From a virus: a stretch of DNA of 43,645 nucleotides. Location of the stretch: IMG/VR virus record IMGVR_UViG_3300017971_000113, positions 1-43,645 of that record. The stretch is one strand, 5' to 3'. Position numbers and translations under genes: made by a program. Under the pieces are notes generated by a model, which saw only the letters and a list, made by a program, of their open reading frames with translations, was not told where the DNA came from and made no database searches. Positions 997 through 31,649 of this stretch are shown here, piece after piece; positions within the stretch are counted from its first letter, which is position 1, and every line of letters begins with the position of its first letter.

Positions 997-1001
997 AATA
1001 A

Positions 1002-1020: not shown

Positions 1021-1031
1021 GGATAAAAAAG

Positions 1032-1948: not shown

Positions 1949-1962
1949 AATCAACTTGCTAT

Positions 1963-2160: not shown

Positions 2161-2162
2161 CC

Positions 2163-5915: not shown

Positions 5916-5931
5916 GGATACCGAGTGATTT

Positions 5932-6649: not shown

Positions 6650-6651
6650 TT

Positions 6652-9612: not shown

Positions 9613-9622
9613 GGGGATACAT

Positions 9623-11329
9623 ATGAGAAAGATATTTATAATTTTAACATTAAGTCTATTTTGTTTCGGCGTTGTGTCGACCGTGTCAGCACAAATCACT
9701 TTTACTTTAAACCCCTTCACAGGAAAACAAGATGCTATTGGAGTGCCCGGAACATACTCGTTAGATTATGATAAAGTGGGGAGTCTAACGCCGGGATCTG
9801 TTGTTTTCGGAGGTGCGACAGGCGCGCTACATGAAGATAACTCTAATTTCTTTTTTGATGACACAAATGATCTTTTAAAAATACAAAGCGCGACTGGAGA
9901 GCAATTAAAATTATTGTATGATGGATCAAATTACGCCGATTTTGAAACAAGCTCTGCCGGAAATTTGTCTTTAAATGTGACTGGCTCAATATTATCGTCA
10001 AACGCCATTACATATTTATTTGGCCAAGGGGCGACTAATCCTTATATAAATCTTTATTTTGCAAATAGAGCTGATGCAATAACGATGATATATTCCGGCG
10101 ATTCGAATGTAAATAACAGTAGATTTTATTTAGTCGGAAGAACAAGAACTGCGACAAATCCATTTTTTATAGACGGGGGGCAAATGGGTAATGATTCCCA
10201 GGTACATGAATCATACATTGAAGCAAGAGACTCATTCGCAACGGCGAGCACAAATATTATAGGCGGCGATTTAAGAATAAAAGCGGGTGATGGGGCAAGC
10301 AGCTCTGTTGGTGATGCTGATGGGGGCGATATATATCTTATTGCGGGGATTGGGTACGGAACAGGCTCCGACGGAAAAGTAATAATAAATAATAGGTTAG
10401 GGGTAGGAATTGATCCGGCAGAAAAATTAGACGTTAGAGGAAATTTATTAGTAAGTGGCGCAAATTATATATATTTAGATGGAGGCATAAGCCCTGTATA
10501 TAGAACAATTTTCAGAACAACCACGTCAGGATATTTCGATGTAAGACCAGGTTTTGAAGCTTTTCAAATAGGTTTCGACACAGGAAATGATAACTATCTT
10601 AGAATATATAACGCCAGTAATGTTCAAACAATAAGACTTGATACTAACGGCAATAGTTATTTATTGGGGGGCAACTTAGGAATAAGCACGAACTCTCCTC
10701 GCCGCAATATAGACATATTAGACACCATCAACCCGCAGCTTAGGCTAACACATACGGACGAAATCATATATGGCGAAATCCACGTAGATTCTAGCGGAGA
10801 TTTGCATCTCACGAACACTGGGAATCAAATTGATATCGGGGGCGTATTAGTTATCACATCAACGGGCGATATTGTTTTTGGATCTGCTGATTCCGATAAG
10901 ACTTATTGGGGCGCGGGCTCCGATATGTCAATCTATTATGATGGCACGGATGCGAATATAAAAACGAACGAAGTGGCGGCAAGTGATTTAAAAATAACTA
11001 CTGGAGGAATAACGCATATTGACGGCGGGAATATCCGAAATATGACGACTGTCAACGCCGCTACTTATGATCTTGTGGAGACGGATTATATCTTACATGT
11101 GACTTATACATCGACGGGCGCAGTTACAAGTTTAACTTTGCCGACCGCGCAAACAGTTTCTGGGAGAATAATCATTATTAAAGATGCCGGATTAAACGCT
11201 TCAACATATTCTATTACGATTGATACGGAGGGCTCACAAAAAATAGATGGCGTTGACACTTATGTGATGAATACAGACGGCGAATCAATAAGTTTATATA
11301 GTAACGGGACGGACTGGTTTATATTTTAA
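9623..11329 (+). CDS. Tail fibre or receptor-binding protein
   Basis: Gly-rich fibre repeats (GGDLRIKAGDGASSSVGDADGGDIYLIAG; LGVGIDPAEKLDVRGN; LGISTNSPRRNIDILD) typical of phage fibre shafts. The N-terminus looks like a Sec signal peptide. Confidence 0.65.
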   Translation: MRKIFIILTLSLFCFGVVSTVSAQITFTLNPFTGKQDAIGVPGTYSLDYDKVGSLTPGSVVFGGATGALHEDNSNFFFDDTNDLLKIQSATGEQLKLLYDGSNYADFETSSAGNLSLNVTGSILSSNAITYLFGQGATNPYINLYFANRADAITMIYSGDSNVNNSRFYLVGRTRTATNPFFIDGGQMGNDSQVHESYIEARDSFATASTNIIGGDLRIKAGDGASSSVGDADGGDIYLIAGIGYGTGSDGKVIINNRLGVGIDPAEKLDVRGNLLVSGANYIYLDGGISPVYRTIFRTTTSGYFDVRPGFEAFQIGFDTGNDNYLRIYNASNVQTIRLDTNGNSYLLGGNLGISTNSPRRNIDILDTINPQLRLTHTDEIIYGEIHVDSSGDLHLTNTGNQIDIGGVLVITSTGDIVFGSADSDKTYWGAGSDMSIYYDGTDANIKTNEVAASDLKITTGGITHIDGGNIRNMTTVNAATYDLVETDYILHVTYTSTGAVTSLTLPTAQTVSGRIIIIKDAGLNASTYSITIDTEGSQKIDGVDTYVMNTDGESISLYSNGTDWFIF

Positions 11330-11338
11330 GGAGAAAAA

Positions 11339-11797
11339 ATGGCACATTTAGGAAAATTTACAATAGGAAGTGTGTTATTCGCAGATTCAAGCGGATATCC
11401 TGGGGAAAGTGCGGATTTAACTTATTTGTCCGATATTTTAAACGTAGAAAAATTAAAAGCAAATCAAGAAATTATCGATAATTATATAAGCCCGTCTTAT
11501 TTTGCAGCGCATCAAAATGATTGGAACCCGACAGGCCTAAGTTCCGCAAGAATTATAAGGATGGGAACAACAGGAGGAAATTATGAATTAAGAGGAATAG
11601 TCGCTCAAAGTTCAAAAATTATAACACTAATAAATGTTTCAGGCGGAGATATAAAAATTGTAAATGAATCAATTACATCAACAGCGCCCAACAGATTTAT
11701 ATTACAGGGAGATATATCAGTAAAAGTTAATCAATGTTGCACGATTTGGTATGATCCTGTTGCCACAAGATGGAGAGCTTTAAGTTTTAGTATTTAA
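11339..11797 (+). CDS. Tail fibre-associated protein (unknown)
   Basis: 152-aa ORF with an RBS, directly after the fibre gene. Confidence 0.35.
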   Translation: MAHLGKFTIGSVLFADSSGYPGESADLTYLSDILNVEKLKANQEIIDNYISPSYFAAHQNDWNPTGLSSARIIRMGTTGGNYELRGIVAQSSKIITLINVSGGDIKIVNESITSTAPNRFILQGDISVKVNQCCTIWYDPVATRWRALSFSI

Positions 11798-11822
11798 TAA
11801 TATTCAAAGAAAGGAGATAAAA

Positions 11823-12107
11823 ATGGCACTAATCAATGATCAAAAATCGCAATTTCTAACAGATATGAGGGCTCTTGCAGAACTTCTTGATCTTGTGAGA
11901 AAAAAAGCAAAAGAGCTTGATCAAAAATGGAATAGCCTTGCATTTGGATCAGGAGGGGCGAACGAATTTGTAGATGGCGATATGACAGGGACAACTTATG
12001 ACGGACTCGGCGTGACTGCGTTGACTGCGTGCGTTACGTCCGTTCAGGGATTCGAGACATGGTATAATGCTGGCCATGACGACAATATGCAAAAAATTAT
12101 GAATTAA
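11823..12107 (+). CDS. Hypothetical protein, paralogue of 12710..13087
   Basis: AAAGGAG RBS. Shares RALA...SGGA(N/D)E(F/I)V.GD..GT..(D/E)G with the 125-aa protein. Confidence 0.5.
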   Translation: MALINDQKSQFLTDMRALAELLDLVRKKAKELDQKWNSLAFGSGGANEFVDGDMTGTTYDGLGVTALTACVTSVQGFETWYNAGHDDNMQKIMN

Positions 12108-12115
12108 AAAATGAG

Positions 12116-12694
12116 TTGAAAATGTCATACGCGTTTAAAATCGGAATAGATAATAACAATCACATGTATGAAGATTTACAAGTATCGATATCAAATATAA
12201 GAATACCTGTTTCGAACGCTCCGACAGAACGACTTTATGATTGTGGGATACCTGGCGGCGTAACTTTCCCGTTTCTTGGATTTGATGTCAATAATTATAT
12301 ATATTTTGATTTACAAACATCTCATGGGATGAAATTAAATACGATATTAGACTCTCATATTCATTACACTTTGCCGAACACAACAGATATAGGGGACAGA
12401 TTTCAATTTAAAATCGATGTGATTGTAGCGGGAATTAATTCTCAATGGAACGTGCCGTCAGGATCGCCGTTTACGGCTGAATTTCAAGTTGCGGCAAATG
12501 ATAATACATATCATAGATTAGCGGATATAGCTGATATTACAGCGAGTAATACAACAATATCTACAATTTATAAATGTAAATTCACAAGAATAGCAGCAAC
12601 GATTGATGAATACGCAAGTGAGATTTATATATCATTTATAGATTCTCATTATCCAAAAAATTCAATAGGAAGTAGAACAGAATCATCAAAATAG
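12116..12694 (+). CDS. Hypothetical structural protein
   Basis: 192-aa ORF (ATG at 12122) flanked by the two paralogues. No recognisable motif. Confidence 0.4.
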   Translation: MKMSYAFKIGIDNNNHMYEDLQVSISNIRIPVSNAPTERLYDCGIPGGVTFPFLGFDVNNYIYFDLQTSHGMKLNTILDSHIHYTLPNTTDIGDRFQFKIDVIVAGINSQWNVPSGSPFTAEFQVAANDNTYHRLADIADITASNTTISTIYKCKFTRIAATIDEYASEIYISFIDSHYPKNSIGSRTESSK

Positions 12695-12709
12695 AAAGGA
12701 TCAAACAAA

Positions 12710-13087
12710 ATGAAAAAAACAGACAAAAAAATCATCTTTATTATGCTCATCAGTGCAATTATGTTTATCGCATCTTTGGCAATCGCCGATTATCCGACAA
12801 ATCAGAAAATTGATTTTATTACCTCGGTTAGAGCCCTCGCTACAAATTTGCAAGCTCAAAAAGCGAATTCTGATTATCTTTATGAAGTTTATTTTGACAG
12901 AGGATATAACAGCGGCGGCGCGGATGAAATAGTAGCTGGTGATCTTGTTGGCACAGAATTTGAGGGAATGCCGATATCTGTTTTAACAGACGTGATTACG
13001 GCGATCAATCAATATAAAAATTATTTTGATAATAGCGCTGTGACAACAGGGGATTACGGATCGAGTTATCGCAAAATAACGAAATAA
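12710..13087 (+). CDS. Hypothetical protein with an N-terminal signal or TM segment, paralogue of 11823..12107
   Basis: N-terminus MKKTDKKIIFIMLISAIMFIASLAIA, then a region alignable with the 94-aa protein. Confidence 0.5.
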   Translation: MKKTDKKIIFIMLISAIMFIASLAIADYPTNQKIDFITSVRALATNLQAQKANSDYLYEVYFDRGYNSGGADEIVAGDLVGTEFEGMPISVLTDVITAINQYKNYFDNSAVTTGDYGSSYRKITK

Positions 13088-13344: not shown

Positions 13345-15111
13345 TTAAAATTTAATTTGTTTTAATTTTGAAAAAGAATTTATTATTAATTTTGTTTCTT
13401 TAATATAATAATCATAATCTAAATCATTTGGAAAATGTAAATCAAATAATGGGGCAGCGTTTACGGATTTCGGCACTCTGTTTCCATTTTTATATTCAAA
13501 ATTTCTGCCTTTTCCATCATAATACCATCTGCAAATTTTTCCAATCGATTCCCCATTAAAATACGCTCCTCCATTTACAGTCCTAATTGTTACAAATTTT
13601 GTTATATCCTTGCAATTTCTAATTTTTTCTTCAATCGGGGATTTATTTTTAAGATATTCTATTGCCGCTTCTACACAAATTTCATTAGTCGGATTTTTCA
13701 TAAAACCAGGTTTGGAATACAAGCCTTTTAGTTTTGTTTTACCGTCATCCGTGAATGCAATATAATTATTTACGTCTTTTTGATAAAATGCTCTGTAAAT
13801 CGTTTCCTCTGTATTAAATCCGGTATCTTTCTCCCATTGTTGGATGATTAAATTTATTTCTTCGTATCTATCCCTGGATTCATAAATCAAAATGCCATCA
13901 GTGTTGGCGCTTATTACATTTATTCCATTAAATCCCAAACGCTCGATCAACATCAGGAGCGCGAATTGTCCCGTTACTGTGACGTTTATAAATAGCTCTG
14001 GAGCATAAATATTTGAATAGATCGAATTTAATTTTCCAAAACATCCATTTATTGTAATTTTCAAACTATCGGCTGTTGATTTATCGCCTATTCTTTTTGC
14101 GTCAAGCCTTTTTTCAACAAGTCCCCTATATACATCAATAAATTTTTTCCCTAATTGAGGCGGGTATAAATCTCTGTTCAAAATGATCGATGGATAATAG
14201 CTCGCAACATCTCTATCGATCAATATTTTATTTTTATCTGATTTTATAGATCTGCTTTTTTCGATGCTGTGGAGTCCACCAATACCGGTAGAATAATGAT
14301 TTCCAAAAACTTGAACCGTATCGTTATTTTTTTCTTTAAAGAAACCAGGCAATCTAATTTTTCCATTATCGATTTCAAAATCAAATTCTTCAAATTGACA
14401 ACATAATATTTCTAAATCAAAATGTTTAAATTTCATCCATTCGGGCCGAATAAATTTTACTTTTTCAGGATGGTCAATCTTTTTTGATTTTATGCCGATT
14501 TCACTCAAAACAACGTTTTCAGCAATTTGAGCATCGGATTTAGATCGCAAATCAACGCCATATTGTTCAGATAAAGAAACTCTCAAATCAATTGCTTTTT
14601 TAAGTTTATTGAATAATTCATAAGTTATTTTACAATCATTTAAGCAATACTCCTTTAGTACGGAATATTGATTTTTTTCTATTACCGATTCAGGATCTAT
14701 TGGAAGTTCTTGTAATTTTGGATAATGCATTCGAGCAGCATATAATTTAAGTCCTGCGTGCCCGGGAGCCACTTCTTTTAAATCTATATGATTTAGTTCT
14801 AATTGAGGACAATCTTTTAAAATTTGCCAGTGCTTTTTCCCCTTTTTTATTATTTCATCCGATATCTTTTTTAAGTCTTCCAAAGAATTTCCGTGTATGA
14901 AAGCCTGAATGATCGGAATATCGTAATTTAAGCCGTTAAATGAAACAAAAAGCGTTTTTCGCATTTGTTCGTTTTTGAAAAATGCTTTAAGCTCATTCGG
15001 ATTATTTTTATCCTGTACGTATTCGAATATTCTTGTGTTTCTTCCATCATCGGGATCATAAAAAACCGCGAGAAAATAATTTATATAACATTCAATATCG
15101 AATACGTACAT
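13345..15111 (-). CDS. DNA polymerase, family B, with 3'-5' exonuclease domain
   Basis: Exonuclease motifs FDIE, FNGLNYD and YCLNDCKITYE. Polymerase motifs DVASYYPSII (DxxSLYPS), KITINGCFGK (KxxxNSxYG-like) and ANTDGI (DTDS-like). Confidence 0.85.
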   Translation of the reverse strand: MYVFDIECYINYFLAVFYDPDDGRNTRIFEYVQDKNNPNELKAFFKNEQMRKTLFVSFNGLNYDIPIIQAFIHGNSLEDLKKISDEIIKKGKKHWQILKDCPQLELNHIDLKEVAPGHAGLKLYAARMHYPKLQELPIDPESVIEKNQYSVLKEYCLNDCKITYELFNKLKKAIDLRVSLSEQYGVDLRSKSDAQIAENVVLSEIGIKSKKIDHPEKVKFIRPEWMKFKHFDLEILCCQFEEFDFEIDNGKIRLPGFFKEKNNDTVQVFGNHYSTGIGGLHSIEKSRSIKSDKNKILIDRDVASYYPSIILNRDLYPPQLGKKFIDVYRGLVEKRLDAKRIGDKSTADSLKITINGCFGKLNSIYSNIYAPELFINVTVTGQFALLMLIERLGFNGINVISANTDGILIYESRDRYEEINLIIQQWEKDTGFNTEETIYRAFYQKDVNNYIAFTDDGKTKLKGLYSKPGFMKNPTNEICVEAAIEYLKNKSPIEEKIRNCKDITKFVTIRTVNGGAYFNGESIGKICRWYYDGKGRNFEYKNGNRVPKSVNAAPLFDLHFPNDLDYDYYIKETKLIINSFSKLKQIKF

Positions 15112-15127
15112 TTTTTAATCCTTTTTA

Positions 15128-15748
15128 TTAAAATGGAATTTCTCTATCGTTTGATGGGTCATTGTTTGTATCAATATCATCAAAAACATCCTCTGGATTT
15201 GTTCGTTTAATATTTCCTCCAAAAGCATCGCCATCAGATAATTTCTGAAAATGAATAATATCAAACACAACGCCAGGTTTAAATCCGCTATTTCCACCGC
15301 CATAAGCGCGAGCGCGCACTTGCGCCCTTCCGATACACCCACCATAAATTTCTTCCGGATCAATAATAGGATTTCTTTCAGCATCGACAATGCCAACTGG
15401 ATTAATAGAGCTAAATTTCATATAAACTTTCCCTGGATATCCCTCATACGCAACACCATCAATATTTATTTTTTCATCTCCATTTTTAAGTACAAAATTA
15501 AAAAAAGTATCTTTGAATTTTCCATTATCATTACTGAATCTTGACGGGATGTTATCCCCGAATCTTTCAATCCCTACTTCTTTAATAGCCGATATGAATT
15601 TTGAAAAATCAGTATTTCGATCAAAAATAGCATCGAGACTGTATTTTGGTTTTTGATCTTGGAAAGATCTTTTTTCAAAAAGCGCCGGGAATGAAACTAC
15701 AAAAGGCTGGGTAATAAACGGCTTTGTTCCATAAGTGTTTGATTTCAT
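15128..15748 (-). CDS. DUF2815-family phage ssDNA-binding-like protein
   Basis: FVVSFPALFE...KYSLDAIF at the N-terminus and IYGGCIGRAQVRARAYG...HFQKLSDGDAFGG at the C-terminus fit the family pattern. Sits next to the DUF2800 nuclease. Confidence 0.7.
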   Translation of the reverse strand: MKSNTYGTKPFITQPFVVSFPALFEKRSFQDQKPKYSLDAIFDRNTDFSKFISAIKEVGIERFGDNIPSRFSNDNGKFKDTFFNFVLKNGDEKINIDGVAYEGYPGKVYMKFSSINPVGIVDAERNPIIDPEEIYGGCIGRAQVRARAYGGGNSGFKPGVVFDIIHFQKLSDGDAFGGNIKRTNPEDVFDDIDTNNDPSNDREIPF

Positions 15749-15776
15749 ATTTATTCTCCTTTTCTGTTTTTTCTGG

Positions 15777-16913
15777 TCACCTAAAAATTTTTTTCGCTTG
15801 TCTGATTAAACTGATTGCCGGACGTTTATCATTTTCAGGCGCGATAGTCGGCTTTCCATCGGGCGTGAATACAAAATCATTAAAATCTAAATCCGGTTTA
15901 GATTTGAAAAGCTTTTCCAGGTCAGCGATTCCTTTTGGTTTATAATCAAAAGCTTCATCGCCGAAAATTTTTTCAAGATCTGTTTCTTTTTCCGATTTTA
16001 ATTTCCTATTTGTTTTCGACATCACCAACTTATATCCAGGAATATTACCGCCTGATTCCATAAATTCCAAGCATTTTGAACGACAAGTTTTAGCCCATTT
16101 GGAATAGACTGATTCAAAAAGTAGAAATTTAGCCATATCATCTGGACCAAACGTCTCTGGATTCGGCATTGTTATTTGATCATCTTTGAATACTGCGATT
16201 GCTGAATTATAAGCAAGCTCTTTTATTGCAGGGCATATATGAGTGCAATTACAAAAATGATCGCGACAACCTACCCCTGGATTATATATCTCTGTTTCGC
16301 TCTCAACTTTTTCTATTATATCTTTAATTTTATTCGACCACTCGCTATGGAATAATGAAACATCTTCGATTTCCCATATTTTTAATTGATCTCCATATGT
16401 CGCTCTTGGCTGGAATATGATCAATTCAAGCCGTTTGCAGCATTCCAGAGGTGGATTTTCTCCGAGAATCATAATTGCATATGCCGCTAATTGCGGATTT
16501 TCAATCGGATCAACCATAACCCCTTTACCATATTTCAAATCGAAAATAGACCATGTACCCCCATAAATTTTAATCACATGATGGTCAGGAGTTCCGCTAA
16601 ATCCTTTATATATCCAATCGCCATCAACTTTTATTTCCGTATGCGCTTCGAACTGAGATTCATCCCTTGGAGTTCTTTCGTGGATGGCATCGAGATATAA
16701 CTGAACATTTTCAATAATTTCTTCTGGAGTCCGTTTTAATGCCATTTTATCCACTTCCCAAATTCGCGCTTTTAAACATTTCCCGGCGATATGATGCGCA
16801 CGAATCCCCTCAAGCATTCCCGGATTTGGTTGAGATTCCGGAATAAATTTTTCAAGTATCGCCATGCCTGGACAATGCATGTATCCCGCTAATTTTGAAG
16901 GCCGACATATCAT
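15777..16913 (-). CDS. DUF2800-family PD-(D/E)XK nuclease (Cas4-like, Fe-S Cys cluster)
   Basis: N-terminal RPSKLAGYMHCPG, core GTPDHHVI...FDLKYGKG, and C-terminal CRDHFCNCTHIC. Confidence 0.7.
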   Translation of the reverse strand: MICRPSKLAGYMHCPGMAILEKFIPESQPNPGMLEGIRAHHIAGKCLKARIWEVDKMALKRTPEEIIENVQLYLDAIHERTPRDESQFEAHTEIKVDGDWIYKGFSGTPDHHVIKIYGGTWSIFDLKYGKGVMVDPIENPQLAAYAIMILGENPPLECCKRLELIIFQPRATYGDQLKIWEIEDVSLFHSEWSNKIKDIIEKVESETEIYNPGVGCRDHFCNCTHICPAIKELAYNSAIAVFKDDQITMPNPETFGPDDMAKFLLFESVYSKWAKTCRSKCLEFMESGGNIPGYKLVMSKTNRKLKSEKETDLEKIFGDEAFDYKPKGIADLEKLFKSKPDLDFNDFVFTPDGKPTIAPENDKRPAISLIRQAKKIFR

Positions 16914-17236
16914 TTGTTTAATTCCTCTCTAACCGAGTTTATAAGCTCATATAGATCTGAATCTTCAACATCATCTAATTTATTTACGCCGTATTTTTGC
17001 AGGATTCTATCAGTTGCAGATTTGCCATTGGATTTAAAAAGTCGCATCATAATAGAGTGCGCTTTTTCTCGTGAGAATTCATTTGAAGAATCAATTGATT
17101 CCAAAGTTTTTTCTTGTTGCGTTGATTGCGTTGAGGAATCAATTGATTCCAAAGCTTTTTCGGATGGATTCTTGGAATAACCAAGAAACTCAATGAATTT
17201 CACTAATTCGTCTAAATTTTCAAAAATTAACTTCAT
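16910..17236 (-). CDS. Hypothetical acidic protein with an internal 16-aa repeat; first gene of the leftward operon
   Basis: RBS AGGAGAGAAC upstream. Repeat EKALESIDSS / EKTLESIDSS, encoded by an exact 19-bp DNA repeat. Confidence 0.6.
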   Translation of the reverse strand: MKLIFENLDELVKFIEFLGYSKNPSEKALESIDSSTQSTQQEKTLESIDSSNEFSREKAHSIMMRLFKSNGKSATDRILQKYGVNKLDDVEDSDLYELINSVREELNK

Positions 17237-17294
17237 GTTCTCTCCTTTCTGTATTCCCTTCTCTCCACGTTTTCCCCTTTCTGTATTCGATTAA

Positions 17295-17329
17295 CTTGAC
17301 AGTATCAGAATGATGTGCTAAATGTCAAG
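17295..17329. promoter_or_regulatory. Divergent early promoter or operator region
   Basis: Inverted repeat CTTGACA (17295-17301) / TGTCAAG (17323-17329) puts a TTGACA -35-like hexamer on each strand between divergent operons. The -10 elements are weak. Confidence 0.35.
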
Positions 17330-17375
17330 ATAAAAATCACATTTTTTAAAAAAATTGAAAGGAGTTTAATAAAAA

Positions 17376-17546
17376 ATGCTTAAATTAAAAGAGATTAAAG
17401 AAAGATTATCGGATATGAATATTCGAGCCATTTCAAAAAAATCAAACATCCCTCATTGGAAAATATATCAAGCCTTAAAATCAACGGATCCAAAATATTC
17501 AATTGTCGAAAAATTATCAGATTATCTTGAAACTATTGGAGATTGA
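17376..17546 (+). CDS. Small HTH DNA-binding protein (Cro/Xre-like), 56 aa
   Basis: Hand translation gives MLKLKEIKERLSDMNIRAISKKSNIPHWKIYQALKSTDPKYSIVEKLSDYLETIGD. GGAG lies 12 nt upstream. First gene of the rightward operon. Confidence 0.55.
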   Translation: MLKLKEIKERLSDMNIRAISKKSNIPHWKIYQALKSTDPKYSIVEKLSDYLETIGD

Positions 17547-17550
17547 AATA

Positions 17551-17580
17551 TGGATAAACGTTGATAAGCATTGATAAGCA
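17551..17580 (+). repeat. Three tandem 10-mers (TGGATAAACG, TTGATAAGCA, TTGATAAGCA) just upstream of the primase gene
   Basis: Two exact copies and one degenerate copy read directly; they end 12 nt before ATG 17593. Confidence 0.6.
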
Positions 17581-17592
17581 ATAGGTATTGAT

Positions 17593-19368
17593 ATGGCATC
17601 TAATAAATCAAAAGCAATGGAATTTTTGCAAATCACGGGAGCTTATCTTTTTCCATCCATATTCAAAGATGGGGAACATAAGCCGCTTATAAAATGGAAA
17701 CTAAACAGTTCAAATGATTACAGACAAATTGAAAAGTGGGCGGAAAAATGGCCTGATTGCTATTTTTGCGTGAATCTCAAAGCATCAAAAATGTCGGCAA
17801 TTGACATTGACGATAAAAATCAAAAAAACGGGTCATTAAAATTCAAAAATTTTCTATCCGAAAATAAATTAGAATTTCCGGAAACATTAACGATTAAAAC
17901 GCCAAGCGGCGGATATCATCATATTTACTCAGGATCTCACATATCAGGAAAACTGATAAAAGGGGCTGTGGATTTACCCGGAATGATTCCTGTTCCCGGA
18001 TCGATTGTTCCAGGGAAAGGGAAATATTCAATCGTGAACGGGCGGCATGAGCTTGAAAATATCCCGGAATGGTTAAAAGCTTTAGAAAAGCCAAAAATCG
18101 AAAAAAAGGAATATTCCGGCATATTGGATGATCCGGCAAATATCAATACTGCAAAACGTTTTCTTTTAGTATGCTCCCCGGCGATTGAAGGTCAAAACGG
18201 CGATATTACTACTTTTAAAACCGCCTGTAAACTAAAAGATTTGGGCTTATCCGAAGAAAAAACATGCGATTTAATGATTGAAATATTTAATCCTCGATGT
18301 TTACCGCCATGGAATATTCGAGATATTCGACTGAAAGTGAAAAATGCTTTCGAATATGGCGAATTGCCAATTGGAGTATCGGCTATCGGATTCGAAGAAA
18401 TTCAAAATGACTCCCCCCTGGAAAAAGAAAAAAAATCAAAAACCGGTTTTCAACTCATTCGAATAGGAGAACTTTTAGGAAAAATTGAAAAAATTGAATG
18501 GCTGATTGACGGTTTTTTTGAAAAAAAAAGCCTAAATATGATTTATGGGGAAAGTGGCGCGTATAAATCATTTTTAGCCGTTTCAATCGCGTGTAGTATC
18601 GCTTCAGGGACTAAATGGTATGGGCGAGATATAGAGCAAGGCCCGGTTGTTTATATCGCGGGAGAGGGACTTAGAGGCATTCCTAAACGAGTTCAAGCTT
18701 GGGCGGAAGAAAATTCAGTTAACGGAGCTGATATAGATATGTATTTGAGTAGTTCATCGGCTAATTTACTTGATCCTGAAAACGTGATGCAGATAAAAAA
18801 ATCAATTGCTGCTGTTAATCCGGTATTAATCATTTACGATACCCTGGCGCGAAATTTCGGCGGCGGCGATGAAAATAAAACAGCGGATATGGTGAAATTT
18901 ATAAATGAGGTCGATTCAGTCGGCGTTGAATCCGCTTCTTTATTAATACATCATACAGGATTGATGGAAAAAGATAGGGCGAGAGGAAGTAGCGCATTAA
19001 GAGCGGCCCTTGATTCTGAATTTCGCATGTCGTTTAATTCGCAGGCGGATAAAGAAAGCAACAAACCGCTTTTAATTTTGACAAATACGAAAATGAAAGA
19101 CTCGGAAAAAGTCGAAAATATTTATTTTGAAAAGCAGATTAGGATTTTAGATTTTGGAAATATAATAGAATCAGTAGTTTTGAAAAAAATTGACCAGGCA
19201 GATATAGACGATCAATTAAAAAATCTAATCATTGAAAATATGATGAACGGAATTTCGGATAGAAAATTATCCGAAAAATTCAATATGAACCGGCGAAAAA
19301 TCCGTAAAATTCGTGAAGACGCTATAACAAAAGGTTTTATTTCTGAAGATATCCATAAAGCCAAATAA
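17593..19368 (+). CDS. Bifunctional prim-pol primase / RepA-DnaB-like helicase with a C-terminal HTH-like tail
   Basis: Prim-pol motifs AIDIDD and SGGYHHIY, a PriCT-like middle region, Walker A GESGAYKS, Walker B LIIYDT, and C-terminal ISDRKLSEKFNMNRRKIRKI. Confidence 0.85.
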   Translation: MASNKSKAMEFLQITGAYLFPSIFKDGEHKPLIKWKLNSSNDYRQIEKWAEKWPDCYFCVNLKASKMSAIDIDDKNQKNGSLKFKNFLSENKLEFPETLTIKTPSGGYHHIYSGSHISGKLIKGAVDLPGMIPVPGSIVPGKGKYSIVNGRHELENIPEWLKALEKPKIEKKEYSGILDDPANINTAKRFLLVCSPAIEGQNGDITTFKTACKLKDLGLSEEKTCDLMIEIFNPRCLPPWNIRDIRLKVKNAFEYGELPIGVSAIGFEEIQNDSPLEKEKKSKTGFQLIRIGELLGKIEKIEWLIDGFFEKKSLNMIYGESGAYKSFLAVSIACSIASGTKWYGRDIEQGPVVYIAGEGLRGIPKRVQAWAEENSVNGADIDMYLSSSSANLLDPENVMQIKKSIAAVNPVLIIYDTLARNFGGGDENKTADMVKFINEVDSVGVESASLLIHHTGLMEKDRARGSSALRAALDSEFRMSFNSQADKESNKPLLILTNTKMKDSEKVENIYFEKQIRILDFGNIIESVVLKKIDQADIDDQLKNLIIENMMNGISDRKLSEKFNMNRRKIRKIREDAITKGFISEDIHKAK

Positions 19369-19416
19369 ACAAAGTGGTAGCGCGGATGAATCGCTATAAG
19401 ACGTTGCTTTTACAAG

Positions 19417-19657
19417 ATGGCGCAACCGTGGCGCAAAGTGGCGCAAAAGGTGGTGTAAGGCGGTGCAATTTTTTAGGCGATTTCCATAAGTATCTGAAAT
19501 CATTACATCCGAGTGGCGCAAAAAGTGGCGCAGGCAAGCGGCGCAAAAAGTGGCGCAAGGTGGAGCATCTTGTTTTTTTTCGTACCGGAAGTATCCAATA
19601 TAATTAAAAATACAAGTGGCGCAAAAAGTGGCGCAAGGTGGTGCAATCACTGGTGTA
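19417..19657 (+). repeat. Iteron-like array: 14 same-orientation GTGGCGCA-type 8-mers in clusters of 5+5+4 (putative origin or protein-binding array)
   Basis: Copies start at 19417, 19428, 19438, 19450, 19460 / 19513, 19525, 19538, 19550, 19560 / 19616, 19628, 19638, 19650. Seven are exact GTGGCGCA. Spacing is 10-13 bp, and each cluster ends in a T-run. Confidence 0.7.
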
Positions 19658-19662
19658 ATTTT

Positions 19663-19691
19663 GGCGCTGTATATATATAATATACAGCGCC
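19663..19691. other. Perfect hairpin GGCGCTGTATAT-atata-ATATACAGCGCC adjoining the repeat array
   Basis: 12-bp stem with a 5-nt loop and an AT-rich centre. It is a terminator for the primase operon and/or an origin structural element. Confidence 0.6.
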
Positions 19692-19750
19692 TAACACCGC
19701 CGAACCAAAAAAACGATATTTGCTAATCTAAAAAATATTATCGATTTTAT

Positions 19751-19779
19751 TTGACAAATAAAAAACGATTTGTTATATT
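19751..19779 (+). promoter_or_regulatory. Sigma70-type promoter TTGACA-N17-TATATT
   Basis: Exact -35 consensus at 19751-19756, a 17-nt spacer, and -10 TATATT at 19774-19779. Upstream of the GGAGG RBS at 19801. Confidence 0.6.
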
Positions 19780-19810
19780 TTAATTATCATTAATAATATG
19801 GGAGGTGAAT

Positions 19811-19906
19811 ATGGAAATAAACGGATATAAAATAAAAGCGGGCGCAAATTTAATGTATGTTGATTTAAATGACGTTAATCTTAAGAATGCAAAAGGAATA
19901 ATTTAA
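19811..19906 (+). CDS. 31-aa ORF with pentapeptide-repeat-like sequence (possible leader or micro-protein)
   Basis: GGAGGTGA RBS 2 nt before the ATG. Product MEINGYKIKAGANLMYVDLNDVNLKNAKGII. Confidence 0.35.
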   Translation: MEINGYKIKAGANLMYVDLNDVNLKNAKGII

Positions 19907-19925
19907 CCAAAAAACGGAGGCGGGT

Positions 19926-22202
19926 ATGGACACATACAAAGATTTTTTAAGAAATAAAAATAAAAAATTGCCGGATTTCGGATTTGATATAGATCTGAAT
20001 TCACTTAATCCTGCTCTATTCGACTGGCAAAAATACATTGTCAAATGGGCGATTAAAAAGGGAAGATGCGCGTTATTCGAGGATTGCGGGTTAGGTAAAA
20101 CAATACAATCACTTGAATGGGTCACAAAAATAATCGAAAATCCAGGAAGTCATGGATTGATAATAGCCCCCCTTGCTGTAAATCGTCAAACAAAAAAAAT
20201 AGGGGATGAGTTTGGATACGAAGTCAATATTTGCAGATCCGAAGATGATATAAAAAATGGAATAAACATATGCAATTACGAAATAATGCATAAATTCGAT
20301 TTTAAAACAAAAGAGTTTATTGTTCTTGATGAATCAAGCATCATAAAAAATGAGGCGAGTGTATATTTATCATTTTTGCTCGATAATATATCAAATATAA
20401 AATACAGATTGTGTTGCACTGCGACTCCAAGTCCGAATGATTACACAGAACTTGGAAATCATGCTGAAATATTAGGTGTATGTACACGCGGCGAAATGCT
20501 CGGAAATTATTTTTACCACGATTCCGGCAATACATCAAAATGGACTTTGATGGAATGGTCAAAAAAAGATTTCTGGGATTGGCTTGCCGATTGGTCAGTC
20601 ATGATAAAAAAACCATCAGACATAGGTTTTTCTGATGATAATTTTAAACTTCCAAAATTAATTTATCATGAACATATAATAAAAACAGATATTAGAGACT
20701 ATGAATTGTTTAGGGAAGAAGTCAAAAGCCTTTCGGATAGAAGGGATGAAAGAAATAAAACGCTTGAAAAAAGAACAGATTGTGCCAAATCATTGATAAA
20801 AGAAGATGAAAAATGGGTTTTTTGGTGTAATTTTAATCCTGAAAGTGAAATGTTATCTAAAAAAATAGACGGATCAATCGAGCTTAAAGGCCCACAGAAA
20901 GCAGAATATAAAGCGAATGTGATGAATGATTTTGCAAACGGGAAAATAGACGTTTTAATCACAAAGCCGAGAATATCAGGATTTGGGATGAATTTCCAAA
21001 TATGCAATAACACTTGTTTCACAATACCATCGGATTCATATGAAGAATGGTATCAGTCGATACGAAGGTTTTGGAGATTCGGAGCAAAAGAAGATGTCAA
21101 CGTTCATATGATAATAACAGATAGAGAAAATCCCATAATAGAAAATTTAAAAGAAAAAATGAGGAAAAACGAAGAAATGGCTATCGAAATGGTTAAAGCG
21201 ATGTCAGAAAAAACAAAAATAGAATTAGGCATTAGCGGCAAAATTATTGTTAGCGATTATAAAGAAAAAATCGTAAAAGGCGAAAATTGGACAGCGTATT
21301 ATGGGGATTGCGTCGAAATATCTTCAAAACAACCTGACAATAAATATGATTTTTGTATTTATAGCCCCCCGTTTGCTGAAATTTATAGATATAGCGATAG
21401 CGAGAGGGATATGGGCAACTCGAAATCATATCATGAATTTTTCGAACATTACAATTTCTTAGTAAAAGAGCAATTTAGAACTCTGAAGCCTGGAAGACTT
21501 GCGGCGATCCATTGCATGAATATACCCGCAATGAAAGAGCGCGATGGATATATAGGAATAAAAAATTTTAGGGATGATATAATAAGAATACATCAAAAAA
21601 ACGGATTCATATATCATTCAGAGATCGTAATACCAAAAGATCCATTAATCGAAAGCCAAAGAACACGTGCTAAAGGATTGGCTCATAAAAACGTTATAAA
21701 AGATTCGGCTTGCTTGAGACAAGCCCTGCCTGATTATTTATGTGTTTTTTATAAACCTGGTAAAAATGAAATTCCAATATCACATCCAGATGGCTTCACA
21801 AAATATATAGGGATTGAATGCGAAAATCCAGGTGGAAAATATGATGAAGAACATTCAAAAAATAGAAAATCACAATATTTGTTTAGAAGGTATGCCGAAT
21901 CTGTTTGGTGGGATATCAGACAAACAAAAACTTTAAAATGTAAAAACGCTAAAGACGATAAAGATGTCAAGCATCCTTGCCCGCTACAATTGGACGTAAT
22001 CGAAAGAGCGATTTATTTATGGTCAAACAAGGATGATTTGATCGTATCGTGGTTTGGAGGAATAGGCTCTGAGGGTTATGTGGCTATATCAAACGATAGA
22101 CGATGTGAAATAGTGGAATTAAAAGAATCTTATTACAACGAACTCATAAAAAATCTTGAAAGGGCAGAAAAAGCACATAAACAACTTGAATTACCAATGT
22201 GA
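19926..22202 (+). CDS. SNF2-family helicase fused to a beta-class DNA (N6-adenine or N4-cytosine) methyltransferase
   Basis: Helicase motifs DCGLGKT, VLDESS, CCTATPSPN and ISGFGMNFQ. The C-terminal half has IYSPPF (motif IV) then HPCPLQ...WFGGIGSEG (motif I). Confidence 0.8.
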   Translation: MDTYKDFLRNKNKKLPDFGFDIDLNSLNPALFDWQKYIVKWAIKKGRCALFEDCGLGKTIQSLEWVTKIIENPGSHGLIIAPLAVNRQTKKIGDEFGYEVNICRSEDDIKNGINICNYEIMHKFDFKTKEFIVLDESSIIKNEASVYLSFLLDNISNIKYRLCCTATPSPNDYTELGNHAEILGVCTRGEMLGNYFYHDSGNTSKWTLMEWSKKDFWDWLADWSVMIKKPSDIGFSDDNFKLPKLIYHEHIIKTDIRDYELFREEVKSLSDRRDERNKTLEKRTDCAKSLIKEDEKWVFWCNFNPESEMLSKKIDGSIELKGPQKAEYKANVMNDFANGKIDVLITKPRISGFGMNFQICNNTCFTIPSDSYEEWYQSIRRFWRFGAKEDVNVHMIITDRENPIIENLKEKMRKNEEMAIEMVKAMSEKTKIELGISGKIIVSDYKEKIVKGENWTAYYGDCVEISSKQPDNKYDFCIYSPPFAEIYRYSDSERDMGNSKSYHEFFEHYNFLVKEQFRTLKPGRLAAIHCMNIPAMKERDGYIGIKNFRDDIIRIHQKNGFIYHSEIVIPKDPLIESQRTRAKGLAHKNVIKDSACLRQALPDYLCVFYKPGKNEIPISHPDGFTKYIGIECENPGGKYDEEHSKNRKSQYLFRRYAESVWWDIRQTKTLKCKNAKDDKDVKHPCPLQLDVIERAIYLWSNKDDLIVSWFGGIGSEGYVAISNDRRCEIVELKESYYNELIKNLERAEKAHKQLELPM

Positions 22203-22324
22203 AATTTCACCCCTGCCTCCAAGGCGGCGAGTCCGGCGTCGCAGCAAACCAAGGCGATATCGATAAAGGGGGATATCATATGAAATATCGCCAACCGGAT
22301 TTATAAAAAGGAGAAAAATTAATC

Positions 22325-22501
22325 ATGAAAGACAGTACGAAATTAATAAAACAGTTGATAGATGATCTGGAAGGAAGAAGAGGATTTGATGGAATAATAA
22401 CAAATCTTGACGATGATATTAAAAAAGAACTTATATCTCAATGGAGAAAAATAATCGTAAATTGGCAGCATAATATAAAGGATAAGAAGCATTTCTCGTA
22501 A
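22325..22501 (+). CDS. Hypothetical 58-aa protein
   Basis: AAAGGAGAAAAA RBS. Hand-translated ORF below the track cutoff. Confidence 0.45.
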   Translation: MKDSTKLIKQLIDDLEGRRGFDGIITNLDDDIKKELISQWRKIIVNWQHNIKDKKHFS

Positions 22502-22622
22502 AATTCATGGAAGAAAGTTTTCAAGACAAAACTTTCTACAATTACATAAATAACGAACTTGCGGGCGATTATGCTGTGGGATTGGCAATCGCCATAAGGA
22601 TGTTGCTTGTTATGTTAATGAG

Positions 22623-23024
22623 TTGCCGAAATGTCTGAAATGGACAAAGAAGATGGAAACCGATTTGAAAAAAATATCTAAAAAACTAAAAACACAAAAT
22701 AATCGAATGACAAAAGATCCATTATTTTGTGTTTTTGAGAAAGAAATAATATGGGGCGTTGATCCTGAATATCATAGCGATGCTGATTTTAAATGGATTA
22801 ACGATGAAGGAGAAATTATTGAAATAGAAGATGAGAAATCAGATAAAATTTTCTTCATCGAAAAAGAACGATTCGTAAACGCGCACTTTACGGAAACAGC
22901 GGCACAAAAATACATTGATATGAACGCTCATAATTTAAGAAAAGCTCATATATATGCTATCTCAATGTATAGATGCGAAGAAATGATATTGATTAGAAAA
23001 TTTTTAATGTGTATCGACAAGTAA
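22623..23024 (+). CDS. Hypothetical protein
   Basis: Track ORF with a TTG start; the first in-frame ATG is at 22653. Confidence 0.5.
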   Translation: MPKCLKWTKKMETDLKKISKKLKTQNNRMTKDPLFCVFEKEIIWGVDPEYHSDADFKWINDEGEIIEIEDEKSDKIFFIEKERFVNAHFTETAAQKYIDMNAHNLRKAHIYAISMYRCEEMILIRKFLMCIDK

Positions 23025-24318: not shown

Positions 24319-24795
24319 ATGAGAAAAACAGATTGTATTAATTATTATAATTGTCTTGATATGGCGGCAAGAATAAACGGAAACATGTATTGCATAAAAT
24401 GCAAAAGATACATGTGTGATCCGGATATAGATAGATTTAATAGAGATCATCAAGTACGAGATTGCAATTATGAAAAAAATTGCAATGGGATACCTATTGA
24501 AGAAGCTATCGCCGGATACTCGGCAAAAGGTTTAAGGCGACAGAGAAAAGTTGATAGAATGAGGGAATTAAAAAAATCAGGCTATGATTCGTATGAAATA
24601 GCTGAAATGTTTAACATTTCCTTTAGAACAGTTGAGAGTTATATATTTTCTTCAAAATCAAAAAAAAGATTAAAGGCCGATGGCAATGAAATTAGGCGCT
24701 TAAGAAAAGAGGGGCATACGCCTCAAGATATTACGGCTTTGACAGGATGGTGTAGCGCGACAGTTTATAAATATTTGGCGGTAAAAGATGTCTGA
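24319..24795 (+). CDS. DNA-binding protein: Cys-rich N-terminus plus two tandem HTH units (possible transcription regulator)
   Basis: GYDSYEIAEMFNISFRTVESYI and GHTPQDITALTGWCSATVYKYL resemble sigma-r4/resolvase-type HTHs. Confidence 0.5.
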   Translation: MRKTDCINYYNCLDMAARINGNMYCIKCKRYMCDPDIDRFNRDHQVRDCNYEKNCNGIPIEEAIAGYSAKGLRRQRKVDRMRELKKSGYDSYEIAEMFNISFRTVESYIFSSKSKKRLKADGNEIRRLRKEGHTPQDITALTGWCSATVYKYLAVKDV

Positions 24796-28728: not shown

Positions 28729-28923
28729 ATGGGCGATTATGTTAAATGCATAAAAGCAGGATCGACAATAGATTGTTGGTCTTGCTATCATTCAAGAGAT
28801 CATGAAAAAATAAAATATGATTCATTGGATGCGAAGTTTTGCTCTCAATGGCAAGACTGCAATGATGGAATAAATAGCAATGGGAAAGTTAGGTGCATCA
28901 AGACAGCAAAGAAGAAAATATAA
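28729..28923 (+). CDS. Small Cys-rich protein, first gene of the ParB/radical-SAM operon
   Basis: 64 aa with 7 Cys (CIKAGSTIDCWSC ... C ... C ... C). Its stop overlaps the next ATG (TAATG). Confidence 0.5.
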   Translation: MGDYVKCIKAGSTIDCWSCYHSRDHEKIKYDSLDAKFCSQWQDCNDGINSNGKVRCIKTAKKKI

Positions 28924-29639
28924 TGAAGATAAAATGCAAGTACGATAAGCTGGTTAAAATATCGGAATTGACAACACTTAAACATCCTCGAAATTATAAT
29001 CAGCACGGAACAGAACAAATAGAGCTATATGCCGAAATAATAAAAGATCAAGGTATAAGAAGACCAATAAGAATATCTAATTTTTCTGGATTTATTACGG
29101 CCGGTCACGGTCTTTTGAAAGCTGCCGAAAAATTAGACTATAATGAGTTACCGGTTGAATATCAGGATTATGACTCAGAAGAGCAAGAGCTTGCTGATAT
29201 TTTGGCGGATAATAATCTTGCTCGACTCGCTACAGTGAATCGTCAAAAGCGGGATTCAATAATCCATGAACTTGTTGAAAAAGGCGTTGACCCAAAAATA
29301 ACCGGAATTTCAAAAGTAATCATGGACGATATTCTCGGAAACGTTCAAAAAATTGATCTTACAGCTTCTGAATTTTTCAATAACCGAGAAGGCTTTATTG
29401 ACGACGAATCATCCGATCTGGATGAATTTGAATCGCAAGATATGATGGATATGTCATCAGGAAAAATAAGAGAACTCGAAAATAGTAAAAAGCGGCCAAT
29501 TGCAATTGTACTCGATAGAAGCCAGTATGAAAAATGGGAATCGTTAAAAAAGACAAAATTTAAAGTTAAGGGTGATACATTAGCGATTCTTAAAATTATT
29601 GAATATTTTGAAACTTTGTTGGAGGAGGATAAAAAATGA
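28923..29639 (+). CDS. ParB-like nuclease domain protein
   Basis: ATG 28923 (the track uses GTG 28893). N-terminal ParB/Srx-fold pattern ISELTTLKHPRNYNQH..IELYAEIIKDQGIRRPIRIS..GFITAGHGLLKAAEKL, with an acidic middle region. Confidence 0.6.
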   Translation: MKIKCKYDKLVKISELTTLKHPRNYNQHGTEQIELYAEIIKDQGIRRPIRISNFSGFITAGHGLLKAAEKLDYNELPVEYQDYDSEEQELADILADNNLARLATVNRQKRDSIIHELVEKGVDPKITGISKVIMDDILGNVQKIDLTASEFFNNREGFIDDESSDLDEFESQDMMDMSSGKIRELENSKKRPIAIVLDRSQYEKWESLKKTKFKVKGDTLAILKIIEYFETLLEEDKK

Positions 29640-31076: not shown

Positions 31077-31649
31077 ATGAACCCGCAATGTAAAGCAAAA
31101 AGCAAACGCACAGGGAACCGTTGCCAACGCCCCGCCATGAACGGAAAAAAAGTATGCTACTATCATGGCGGCAAGTCTCCAGGCGCTCCAAAAAAAAATA
31201 AAAACGCTTTCAAACATAGTTTTTACTCTCAATTATATGTCGGAGATGATCAAGAAAAAGTTCAAGCTTTGTCGGTAGAACTTGCATCCGGCGATCATTT
31301 GGAGTTATTGAAAAGTCATCTTGTTTCTGCAATATCAAATCACGCGAAAATGATAGTTGCCCAAAGAACTTATTATGAAGAAAGAGAAAAAGTAAAAGCC
31401 AATGGGCTGGATATGGAAACACTTTCTAAGAACGGAGAGGATGCTGACGGGAATAAATATGTGACGCTGCATCGATTGAGAGATTTTTCAAATGAATTGC
31501 ACGCCGCGCAAAATCAAGTGCTTAAAATTGTAAAAGAAATACACGCCATAAAGATGGATTTAGGATTAGATAAAGATACGGAAAAAATAATCTTTGATTT
31601 GAAGTTCAATTTTGACGAAGAAAAAGAAAGCGAGCCCGGGCTGGATTAG
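31077..31649 (+). CDS. HGGxSTG-like Cys/His N-terminal motif protein; possible small terminase or DNA-binding protein
   Basis: CKAKSKRTGNRCQRPAMNGKKVCYYHGGKSPGAPKKNKNAFKHSFYS followed by a helical C-terminus. The TerS role is inferred only from motif recollection and proximity to TerL. Confidence 0.35.
   Translation: MNPQCKAKSKRTGNRCQRPAMNGKKVCYYHGGKSPGAPKKNKNAFKHSFYSQLYVGDDQEKVQALSVELASGDHLELLKSHLVSAISNHAKMIVAQRTYYEEREKVKANGLDMETLSKNGEDADGNKYVTLHRLRDFSNELHAAQNQVLKIVKEIHAIKMDLGLDKDTEKIIFDLKFNFDEEKESEPGLD

Follow-up and report, generated by a model that had tools for sequence, protein, structure and literature searches.

What is an ordered array of short repeats doing in the gap between two genes of a phage replication module? 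The question is raised by the window analysed here, the 43,645-bp viral contig IMGVR_UViG_3300017971_000113 of IMG/VR. Positions 1-123 of the window are identical to 43523-43645, so that the assembly is circularly closed with about 43.5 kb of unique sequence, and the window is a complete circular phage genome. The repeats lie in the 557-bp gap between a gene for a 591-amino-acid primase-helicase and the next gene, an SNF2 helicase-methyltransferase fusion, and the module around them (polymerase, single-stranded DNA-binding protein (SSB), exonuclease and SNF2 helicase) is made up of replication genes. We suggest, from the sequence and by analogy, that 19417-19800 is the origin of replication of this phage, or the initiator-binding part of that origin, and that it is of the iteron type; we would put the probability of this at roughly 0.7. 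We propose that it is read in cis by the protein encoded immediately before it, which combines a Prim-Pol domain, a RepA-like helicase and a small C-terminal domain (CTD). This reading draws on the anatomy of the array, its uniqueness in a complete genome, the domain make-up of the neighbouring protein, the association of arrays with the helicase family, and the way in which relatives have replaced CTD and array together.

The array consists of 14 + strand copies of the octamer VYGGHGYA between 19417 and 19657, seven of which are the exact sequence GTGGCGCA. The copies begin 49 bp and end 289 bp past the stop codon of the primase-helicase gene and fall into three clusters (Table 1) that are 96 and 103 bp apart, with start-to-start spacings of 11, 10, 12 and 10 bp in the first, 12, 13, 12 and 10 bp in the second and 12, 10 and 12 bp in the third. 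An earlier note on this DNA, made from its letters alone, had described 14 same-strand copies with seven exact ones, clusters starting at 19417, 19513 and 19616, spacings of 10-13 bp within them, a T-run closing each (T6, T8 and T4), a perfect hairpin with a 12-bp stem after the array at 19663-19691 and a GC-rich island in an AT-rich genome, and all of these were found as described. The clusters have a GC content of 53-62 % compared with about 35 % for the genome, and over 40 bp their duplexes have stabilities of -60 to -63 kcal/mol, which puts them no higher than the 1st percentile genome-wide. Together with their spacers they align as three higher-order repeats of about 100 bp, and inside each of these modules the consensus sites come first and the degenerate copies later.

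Nothing else in the genome looks like this array. On both strands of the 43,645 bp exact GTGGCGCA occurs eight times, seven times on the + strand between 19428 and 19635 and once outside the array as an isolated copy at 10455; shuffled versions of the sequence average 0.45 copies genome-wide and never have more than 2. The degenerate motif is found 37 times genome-wide where 18.7 are expected, and 23 of these copies are scattered outside the array; no second cluster of the GTGGCGCA-type motif is present in the complete genome, and in a scan of 350-bp windows the array has the top repeat density of the whole contig. Three open reading frames (ORFs) cross it, at 19374-19607 and 19513-19680 on the + strand and at 19267-19650 on the - strand, the last of which runs antisense into the primase gene. 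All three have GTG starts and none matches a Pfam family, so that it was reasonable of the earlier note to treat the long ORFs here as artefacts. Since the spacings are not multiples of three the repeat is not a peptide repeat, and this together with the nature of the ORFs indicates that the region is non-coding.

The array is followed by a perfect palindrome which, folded as single-stranded DNA, has a free energy of -13.6 kcal/mol (z = -5.9). Its arms open with the iteron core GGCGC in inverted orientation, and the 19 bp at its centre, GTATATATATAATATAC, have G-C pairs at the two ends only. No T-run follows the palindrome on either strand, the 12-bp stem was not listed as a terminator in a consensus scan, and the hairpin it can form is identical on both strands. 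We propose that it is a site of symmetric assembly, melting or priming. Beyond it lies an AT-rich stretch that is a candidate DNA-unwinding element: between 19700 and 19800 duplexes of 40 bp have free energies of -38.5 to -42 kcal/mol, which places them at the 95th-99th percentile of the genome or higher. Signals for transcription are found here as well. Some 60 bp past the palindrome comes a promoter-like site. A terminator-like stem, weak and with G-T pairs, overlaps cluster 2, where the primase transcript possibly ends; from the primase stop codon up to cluster 1 no clear terminator is seen.

The domain make-up of the neighbouring protein is informative in considering what might act on the array. 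Pfam places a Prim-Pol domain at residues 17-160 (E 2e-14), which on sequence is a primase domain of the archaeo-eukaryotic type (AEP), and an AAA_25 domain at residues 290-456 (E 9.5e-30). The full-length AlphaFold model of the 591 residues has a mean predicted local distance difference test score (pLDDT) of 81.8, and its top Foldseek matches in the PDB are the RSF1010 RepA helicase (1nlf, 1olo and 1g8y; target-normalised template modelling score 0.71-0.77, and for 1nlf/1g8y 0.73-0.77 with E 1e-11). Judged by this model and by the sequence, the helicase part is a RepA-like hexameric helicase with a RecA fold, and not a superfamily 3 (SF3) helicase. Past the helicase core the AlphaFold model has two beta-strands and then three short helices, at residues 535-548, 556-563 and 567-579, with pLDDT values of 64-70. 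The CTD formed by these helices gives weak Pfam matches to HTH_36, HTH_28 and wHTH (E about 0.07); a PDB sequence search with it returned nothing significant, a stretch resembling sigma-70 region 4, KLSEKFNMNRRKIRKIREDAITK, being among the non-significant matches, and an AlphaFold run on the CTD by itself had a mean pLDDT of 60, too poor for a fold search. The helix-turn-helix (HTH)-like C-terminus described earlier is weakly supported by these three predicted helices and by Pfam HTH matches at E ~0.07, and a C-terminal DNA-binding HTH in the 591-residue protein is plausible from model and sequence. By analogy this protein is the proposed initiator.

A further candidate DNA-binding protein is encoded directly ahead of the primase-helicase gene. 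Its sequence suggests a probable role for this 56-residue HTH protein in autoregulation of the replication operon, and it is also a rival candidate for the iteron binder. Small HTH_3 genes occupy the same position just upstream of the helicase gene in two relatives (L021 and L024; loci and contigs are cited by L numbers). An inverted repeat, TTAACTTGACA/TGTCAAGATAA, is found at 17291-17333, where a divergent promoter region separates the small HTH gene from the operon on the exonuclease side; it is plausibly a separate operator, or could be two back-to-back -35 boxes. Just ahead of the primase start codon there is also a tandem repeat of TTGATAAGCA (2.8 copies, 17553-17582). Neither of these repeats resembles the GTGGCGCA motif.

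A search of GenBank phage DNA with 17000-23000 gave no relevant match, only one irrelevant 255-bp alignment; a search of 5.8 billion proteins with the primase-helicase found best homologues of 34-38 % identity and none above 38 %; a search of IMG/VR for related loci from the single sequence found nothing, and an exact-protein lookup of the window's own primase returned no record. The exact 20-mer GTGGCGCAAAAAGTGGCGCA was found in 19 IMG/VR contigs (L001-L019), all of them GC-rich, unrelated and with two copies only, and these were rejected as relatives. One group has it about 100 bp past a tRNA gene, another immediately before an integrase-like ORF and a third within a coding region; in the tRNA and integrase-like groups it may be an integrase arm-type site.

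Because no close relative exists, distant homologues were surveyed for architecture. Through exact-protein lookups and IMG/VR pattern scans 95 loci were gathered (96 with the window); the pattern scans used the sub-alignments A2 and A3, the 18 sequences of alignment A1 being too diverse for this purpose. Each 350-bp window of a locus was scored by the highest copy number of any one 7-mer on either strand, and an array was taken to be at the helicase 3' end when the locus-wide maximum started between -400 and +200 bp from the helicase stop codon. This was the case in 58 of 91 evaluable loci. After reduction at 80 % identity it held for 26 of 42 lineages without the window and for 27 of 43 with it, the latter where 4.3 are expected, and 27 lineages were reached in none of 200,000 simulations. 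Nearly every lineage has a motif of its own (TGGCGCA, CGTTACA, GTTCACA, CCGGACA, GGAGACG and others, and also CGCAACG with 12 copies, ACGTGAC with 11, AAGGTCA with 13 and GGTTACA with 10). In the relatives, copies of the motif are found on either strand (9+9, 9+7 or 8+4, for instance), a pattern that suits double-stranded DNA as the thing recognised and does not suit an RNA motif.

The palindrome, too, recurs. Perfect stems of at least 10 bp are present in 13 of 25 relatives' arrays compared with 3 % of control windows, and because of this enrichment the hairpin of the window is considered part of a recurrent design and no accident. Many of the relatives' palindromes are built of inverted motif copies and centred on TATA (CTATAG or TTATAA). 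Such centres are found whatever the iteron sequence, as in L021 (7050-7095), L023 (4700-4760) and L024 (6035-6085), and again downstream of the helicase stop codon in L029, L030, L035, L039 and L042; in L026 (P0004) an array of GGGAGACG with a palindrome follows directly downstream. It may be that the TATA-type centre is a signal for melting or priming that is conserved in this helicase family. The association in 27 of 43 lineages, the enrichment of palindromes and the AT-rich stretch of low stability thus lend support to the view, already put forward in the earlier note, that these are helically phased iterons of an origin beside its initiator gene.

The clade L078-L106 is of particular value in considering which protein might read the iterons. 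Identity among its helicase cores is 76-89 %. Over the last 80 residues identity is 75-100 % where the iteron is the same and 24-44 % where the iterons differ substantially (GGGAACA, GGAGACA, GGTTACA, ATCAGAA), and in a pair whose motifs are one base apart, GGGAACA and GGTAACA, the CTDs are 79 % identical with substitutions in the predicted last helix. The clearest case is that of L079, with the motif GGGAACA, and L080, with GGAGACA. These two loci are 92 % identical up to the boundary between core and CTD and 97 % identical from just past the array, and the intervening 490 bp (3729-4220 in L079, 3729-4208 in L080), which are exactly the CTD coding region and the array, have no detectable similarity. 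CTD and iterons are exchanged as one specificity cassette in these relatives. At the level of sequence this is the pattern that would be expected if the CTD reads the iterons, and it favours the earlier suggestion that the CTD of the primase-helicase is the iteron reader. For the phage of the window this role is suggested by position and analogy, as its CTD is not detectably homologous to those of the clade. Upstream of the helicase gene the clade has a methyltransferase gene and no small HTH gene; between L079 and L080 this gene, for a C5 methyltransferase, has also been replaced.

It is possible to outline how such an origin might work. The CTD would bind the 14 GTGGCGCA-type sites, which, at intervals of about one helical turn, lie along the same side of the DNA within three modules of about 100 bp, and this binding would raise the local concentration of the protein and nucleate assembly of the hexamer. 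The duplex could then open at the TA-only centre of the palindrome, with its flanking inverted GGCGC half-sites, and/or in the adjacent stretch of 85-90 % AT. The helicase might load itself on the exposed strands without a separate loader, and the Prim-Pol domain would prime, possibly on the palindrome hairpin, which would make it functionally like ssiA and ssiB of RSF1010 (PMC8567376). The family-A-type polymerase, the Gp2.5/Enc34-type SSB and the exonuclease would take over from there.

Several observations weigh against an origin at this site, or against its being read by the CTD. All 14 full sites are in one orientation, and the only inverted elements are the GGCGC half-sites in the palindrome arms; full iterons in opposite orientation, as found in the origins of Staphylococcus aureus pathogenicity islands (SaPIs), are absent from the window and present in most of its relatives. 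The earlier note had proposed a calculation of cumulative GC skew as a check, and had held that related phages lacking any array at this position would speak against its reading. The skew has its minimum at about 17,000-17,500, where the coding strand switches, and because it simply follows gene orientation it does not single out the array. An array is missing from the helicase 3' end in three of the four closest readable relatives (L119, L120 and L121, 34-37 % identical), and L121 (P0002) has none within the 14 kb read, but L119 and L120 have arrays elsewhere, 2.5-4.7 kb ahead of the primase gene in a large intergenic region. The closest subclade is thus mixed, as it also includes L026 with its array directly downstream. 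That of L119 consists of GGTACAA palindromes in a 1-kb divergent intergenic region, which could equally be operators. In L120, at 1230-1900, a palindrome with 26-bp arms has about 12 direct copies of GCTAACA to its left and inverted copies to its right, the whole lying in a 1-kb intergenic region some 4 kb upstream of the homologous primase-helicase gene; from its sequence this looks like a displaced origin of the same design. In a further IMG/VR subgroup a CCGGACA array lies about 2 kb downstream. These displaced arrays suggest that the array is a mobile module and not rigidly tied to one position. As to the CTD, comparison of that of the window with the profile of the relatives' CTDs (hhalign) gave E 0.22, at which homology is undetected, and for this reason none is claimed; its HTH character comes from weak Pfam matches and a model of medium confidence. 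The joint replacement of CTD and array could be due in part to their physical adjacency rather than to function. Finally, a regulatory role is possible for an array beside a strong promoter-like site just downstream.

What else, then, could the array be? It might serve as an auxiliary cis element, such as an enhancer, a copy-control ('handcuffing') site or a counterpart of the crr of phage P4, that titrates or concentrates the initiator while the strands open elsewhere. The three modules in the same orientation resemble the direct repeats that crr is said to contain, and some relatives have their arrays 2-4.7 kb from the helicase gene; we nevertheless find this unlikely, given that the genome holds no second cluster of the motif, just the isolated exact copy at 10455, and that the palindrome and AT-rich stretch needed for opening adjoin the array. 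There is likewise only a small chance that the sites are operators for a phage regulator (the 56-residue HTH protein, a 158-residue protein with two HTH motifs, or another) that would bring the primase operon to an end or insulate it, and would also control the promoter at 19751-19779. The near-consensus promoter 60 bp past the palindrome would suit this, as would the terminator-like stem overlapping cluster 2 and the small HTH genes that precede the primase gene in this phage, in L021 and in L024. Against this, 14 sites over 240 bp, all of them upstream of the -35 box, would be unusual for operators, and the small HTH gene has, in its divergent promoter region, an inverted repeat of another kind. 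The association seen in relatives is moreover with the helicase 3' end and the CTD, whatever lies downstream, and it holds in the clade that has no HTH gene upstream.

Two of the remaining alternatives had been raised in the earlier note. Phased direct repeats form the parC centromere of plasmid R1, which the 5+5(+4) arrangement recalls, and a ParB-like N-terminal domain protein is encoded at 28893-29639, so that a partition centromere of the parC or parS kind, bound by an adaptor in a phage that persists as a plasmid prophage, might be envisaged. Pfam and PHROG scans took in 54 ORFs, covering nearly all those of 110 amino acids or more and only part of the smaller ones; among these 54 there is no adjacent partition operon, no ParA or ParM motor and no integrase or lysogeny module, and the sole ParB-like gene is 9 kb off with a methyltransferase-type PHROG as its best match. 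With the comparative link being to the helicase gene, a centromere is very unlikely. A protein-sponge or other regulatory RNA, with the GUGGCGCA motifs in the primase transcript or its 3' untranslated region, has equally little to recommend it: all 14 copies are on the transcribed strand with no clear terminator ahead of cluster 1, and the whole region folds better than shuffled sequence (z = -2.8 on the + strand, -4.0 on the - strand), but the predicted structure includes the 12-bp palindrome, which is present on both strands and strongly stable alone (z = -5.9), and the relatives' motifs are on both strands. Rfam 15 gave no match in the whole window at gathering thresholds, and around the element a permissive search with E up to 10 gave chance-level matches only (E at least 1.5). 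Packaging initiation (pac) sites can also contain arrays of short repeats, and a pac site bound by the small terminase is extremely improbable here, with both terminase genes more than 11 kb away and the array embedded in a replication module and following the helicase gene in relatives.

The iteron origin preferred here fits its surroundings in the genome (Table 1), in which a search for tRNA genes found none. The 758-residue ORF downstream of the gap joins SNF2-rel_dom and Helicase_C domains to an N6/N4 DNA methyltransferase domain; in relatives L020, L021 and L024 the SNF2 gene is separate and shorter (436-544 amino acids). Directly past the promoter-like site a 31-residue ORF, MEINGYKIKAGANLMYVDLNDVNLKNAKGII, with a strong GGAGGTG ribosome-binding site and no family match, occupies 19811-19906. 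The gene for the ParB-like protein overlaps that for a 408-residue radical-SAM protein by 4 bp (block 28893-30862), and the pair may be concerned with DNA modification rather than partition. The 158-residue protein mentioned above (24319-24795) has matches to HTH_7/HTH_23 and to a sigma-70 region-4-like motif; it is a possible transcription factor of the phage, or one more candidate for DNA binding.

Table 1. Features of the window in map order, with coordinates on the 43,645-bp contig.
Feature	Position	Strand	Details
Tail genes	1-13000		
Polymerase/SSB/exonuclease block	13345-17236	-	
Family-A-type DNA polymerase	13345-15111	-	
Gp2.5/Enc34-type SSB	15128-15748	-	
DUF2800 exonuclease	15777-16913	-	
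56-aa HTH regulator gene	17376-17546	+	phrog_18104 'transcriptional regulator', E 5e-8; weak Pfam TrmB
591-aa primase-helicase gene	17593-19368	+	
C-terminal three-helix domain (CTD)	19195-19365	+	residues 535-591; putative iteron-recognition domain
Iteron cluster 1	19417-19467	+	five sites: ATGGCGCA, GTGGCGCA, GTGGCGCA, GTGGTGTA, GCGGTGCA; then T6 at 19469-19474
Iteron cluster 2	19513-19567	+	five sites: GTGGCGCA, GTGGCGCA, GCGGCGCA, GTGGCGCA, GTGGAGCA; then T8 at 19573-19580
Terminator-like stem and T-run	19555-19582	+	GCAAGGTG-GAG-CATCTTGT; overlaps last iteron of cluster 2; from consensus scan only
Iteron cluster 3	19616-19657	+	four sites: GTGGCGCA, GTGGCGCA, GTGGTGCA, CTGGTGTA; then T4 at 19659-19662
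Perfect palindrome	19663-19691		12-bp stem, 5-nt loop: GGCGCTGTATAT / ATATA / ATATACAGCGCC
AT-rich low-stability stretch	19700-19810		80-90 % AT; candidate DNA-unwinding element
Near-consensus sigma-70-type promoter	19751-19779		TTGACA-17-TATATT, extended TG, 11/12 matches; putatively for downstream SNF2-methylase operon
SNF2 helicase-N6/N4 methyltransferase fusion	19926-22202		Pfam/PHROG match
Holliday-junction resolvase			further downstream
ParB-like N-terminal domain protein	28893-29639		further downstream
Radical-SAM protein			further downstream
Small terminase	31077-31649		
Large terminase	34059-35459		
Portal, scaffold, P22-type coat			further downstream

An iteron origin beside the gene for its initiator is a well-known kind of element, and since this is textbook knowledge the conceptual surprise is small. 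What the analysis adds is the placing of a probable origin in a phage without a cultured or annotated close relative, and the suggestion of a rule, namely that lineage-specific iterons and a TATA-centred palindrome lie directly 3' of the gene for a RepA-like helicase. In the searchable literature we found no description of origins for this phage lineage and helicase type, nor of the family-wide 3'-end rule, the exchange of CTD and iterons or the recurrent TATA-centred palindrome. The CTD/iteron cassettes provide testable pairs of protein and DNA specificity and a source of orthogonal origins for the engineering of phages and plasmids, and they might allow prediction of replication incompatibility or origin-based interference among related phages. 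A wider and more tentative idea is that phage helicases of the RepA/AAA_25 type fused to Prim-Pol or Toprim primases make up a large class of all-in-one, self-loading initiators of superfamily 4 type, each with an exchangeable C-terminal reader and lineage-specific iterons around a TATA-centred palindrome for symmetric melting and priming, and that in this phage the array has expanded into three one-directional modules of about 100 bp that make a unidirectional or an enhancer-like (crr-like) origin; we regard this as conceivable, though doubtful.

Among known systems the closest match in function, by analogy, is the Rep-ori pair of the SaPIs and other phage-inducible chromosomal islands (PICIs). 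SaPI Rep is an AAA+ helicase of an MCM-like clade, of 3'-5' polarity, whose C-terminal winged helix binds iterons situated immediately after rep, and the origin has 6-12 iterons of 5-6 bp opposed around a central AT region (PMC9371898). For SaPI and PICI Rep, or the fused Pri-Rep, the passage in PMC7581432 that cites Ubeda et al. 2007 places the ori directly 3' of rep. Here, as in the SaPIs, an initiator-helicase, which in those elements is sometimes fused to a primase, is encoded beside its own 3' origin, with short iterons (14 copies directly 3' of the gene) and an easily melted AT-rich part beside them, and the C-terminal specificity that varies by element in the SaPIs is matched by the CTD/iteron cassette, which is seen to change as a unit in the relatives and not in the window itself. 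Unlike SaPI Rep, the helicase here is RepA-like with a RecA fold, and the 14 sites are of 8 bp and run in one direction in three modules of about 100 bp, with inverted half-sites in the palindrome only.

The ancestry of the helicase, to judge from the structural model, lies with RepA of the IncQ plasmid RSF1010. At the oriV of that plasmid the RepA helicase, the AEP-type primase RepB' and the iteron binder RepC are all separate proteins, and the origin comprises iterons, an AT-rich part and the hairpin-forming priming signals ssiA and ssiB on the two strands (PMC8567376). The likeness is in the RepA-type helicase core with its RecA fold, for which RSF1010 RepA is the closest solved structural relative, in a primase of archaeo-eukaryotic type, and in the joining of iterons with an AT-rich part and hairpin-forming sequence. 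RSF1010 has 3.5 iterons of 20 bp, whereas the iterons here are of 8 bp, a single palindrome would have to serve for both strands, and one polypeptide seems to carry all three activities. Separate RepC and RepB' proteins, 20-bp iterons and paired ssi hairpins were not found in the window, no search aimed at a RepC homologue having been made.

Other comparisons touch single features. Cch2 of the staphylococcal cassette chromosome element SCCmec is a helicase of the self-loading type that binds direct repeats at a putative origin directly downstream of cch2, with inverted repeats nearby (PMC7581432). It is, unlike the protein here, a D5-family helicase that works with a separate primase-polymerase pair, and it has three 5-nt iterons only. 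In the archaeal plasmid pRN1 an essential stem-loop lies downstream of the Prim-Pol-helicase gene orf904, ahead of which is the gene for a small DNA-binding regulator, orf56, and its authors note the same layout in some bacteriophages (PMC4234260). The order of a small regulator gene, a Prim-Pol-helicase gene and then a structured element just downstream is that of the window, but the pRN1 element is a stem-loop of about 100 nt without iterons and that of the window a 29-nt hairpin after 14 iterons. The alpha protein of satellite phage P4 is said to unite primase, helicase and a C-terminal origin-binding domain, and its iterons are reportedly octamers, TGTTCACC, in two separated cis elements, ori and crr; crr reportedly consists of two 120-bp direct repeats with several iterons each, downstream of the alpha gene, with ori 4.5 kb away. 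Our search of the literature on P4 crr and on 'RepA-like helicase' phage origins found nothing in the papers searched. A single multi-domain protein, octamer iterons and long direct repeats resembling the three modules are thus common to P4 and the window, which has one cluster of sites only, and the primase and helicase of alpha belong to other families. The SF3 (D5/P4-type) helicase domain of P4 alpha and pRN1 ORF904 is absent from the 591-residue protein, which has AAA_25/RepA instead, and since this helicase has a RecA fold and is RepA-like, the analogy with P4 drawn in the earlier note holds for function only. The orientation of the sites, the helicase superfamily, the length and number of the sites and the three-module layout set the element of the window apart from the SaPI type, and we therefore describe it as working like these systems while being a member of none.

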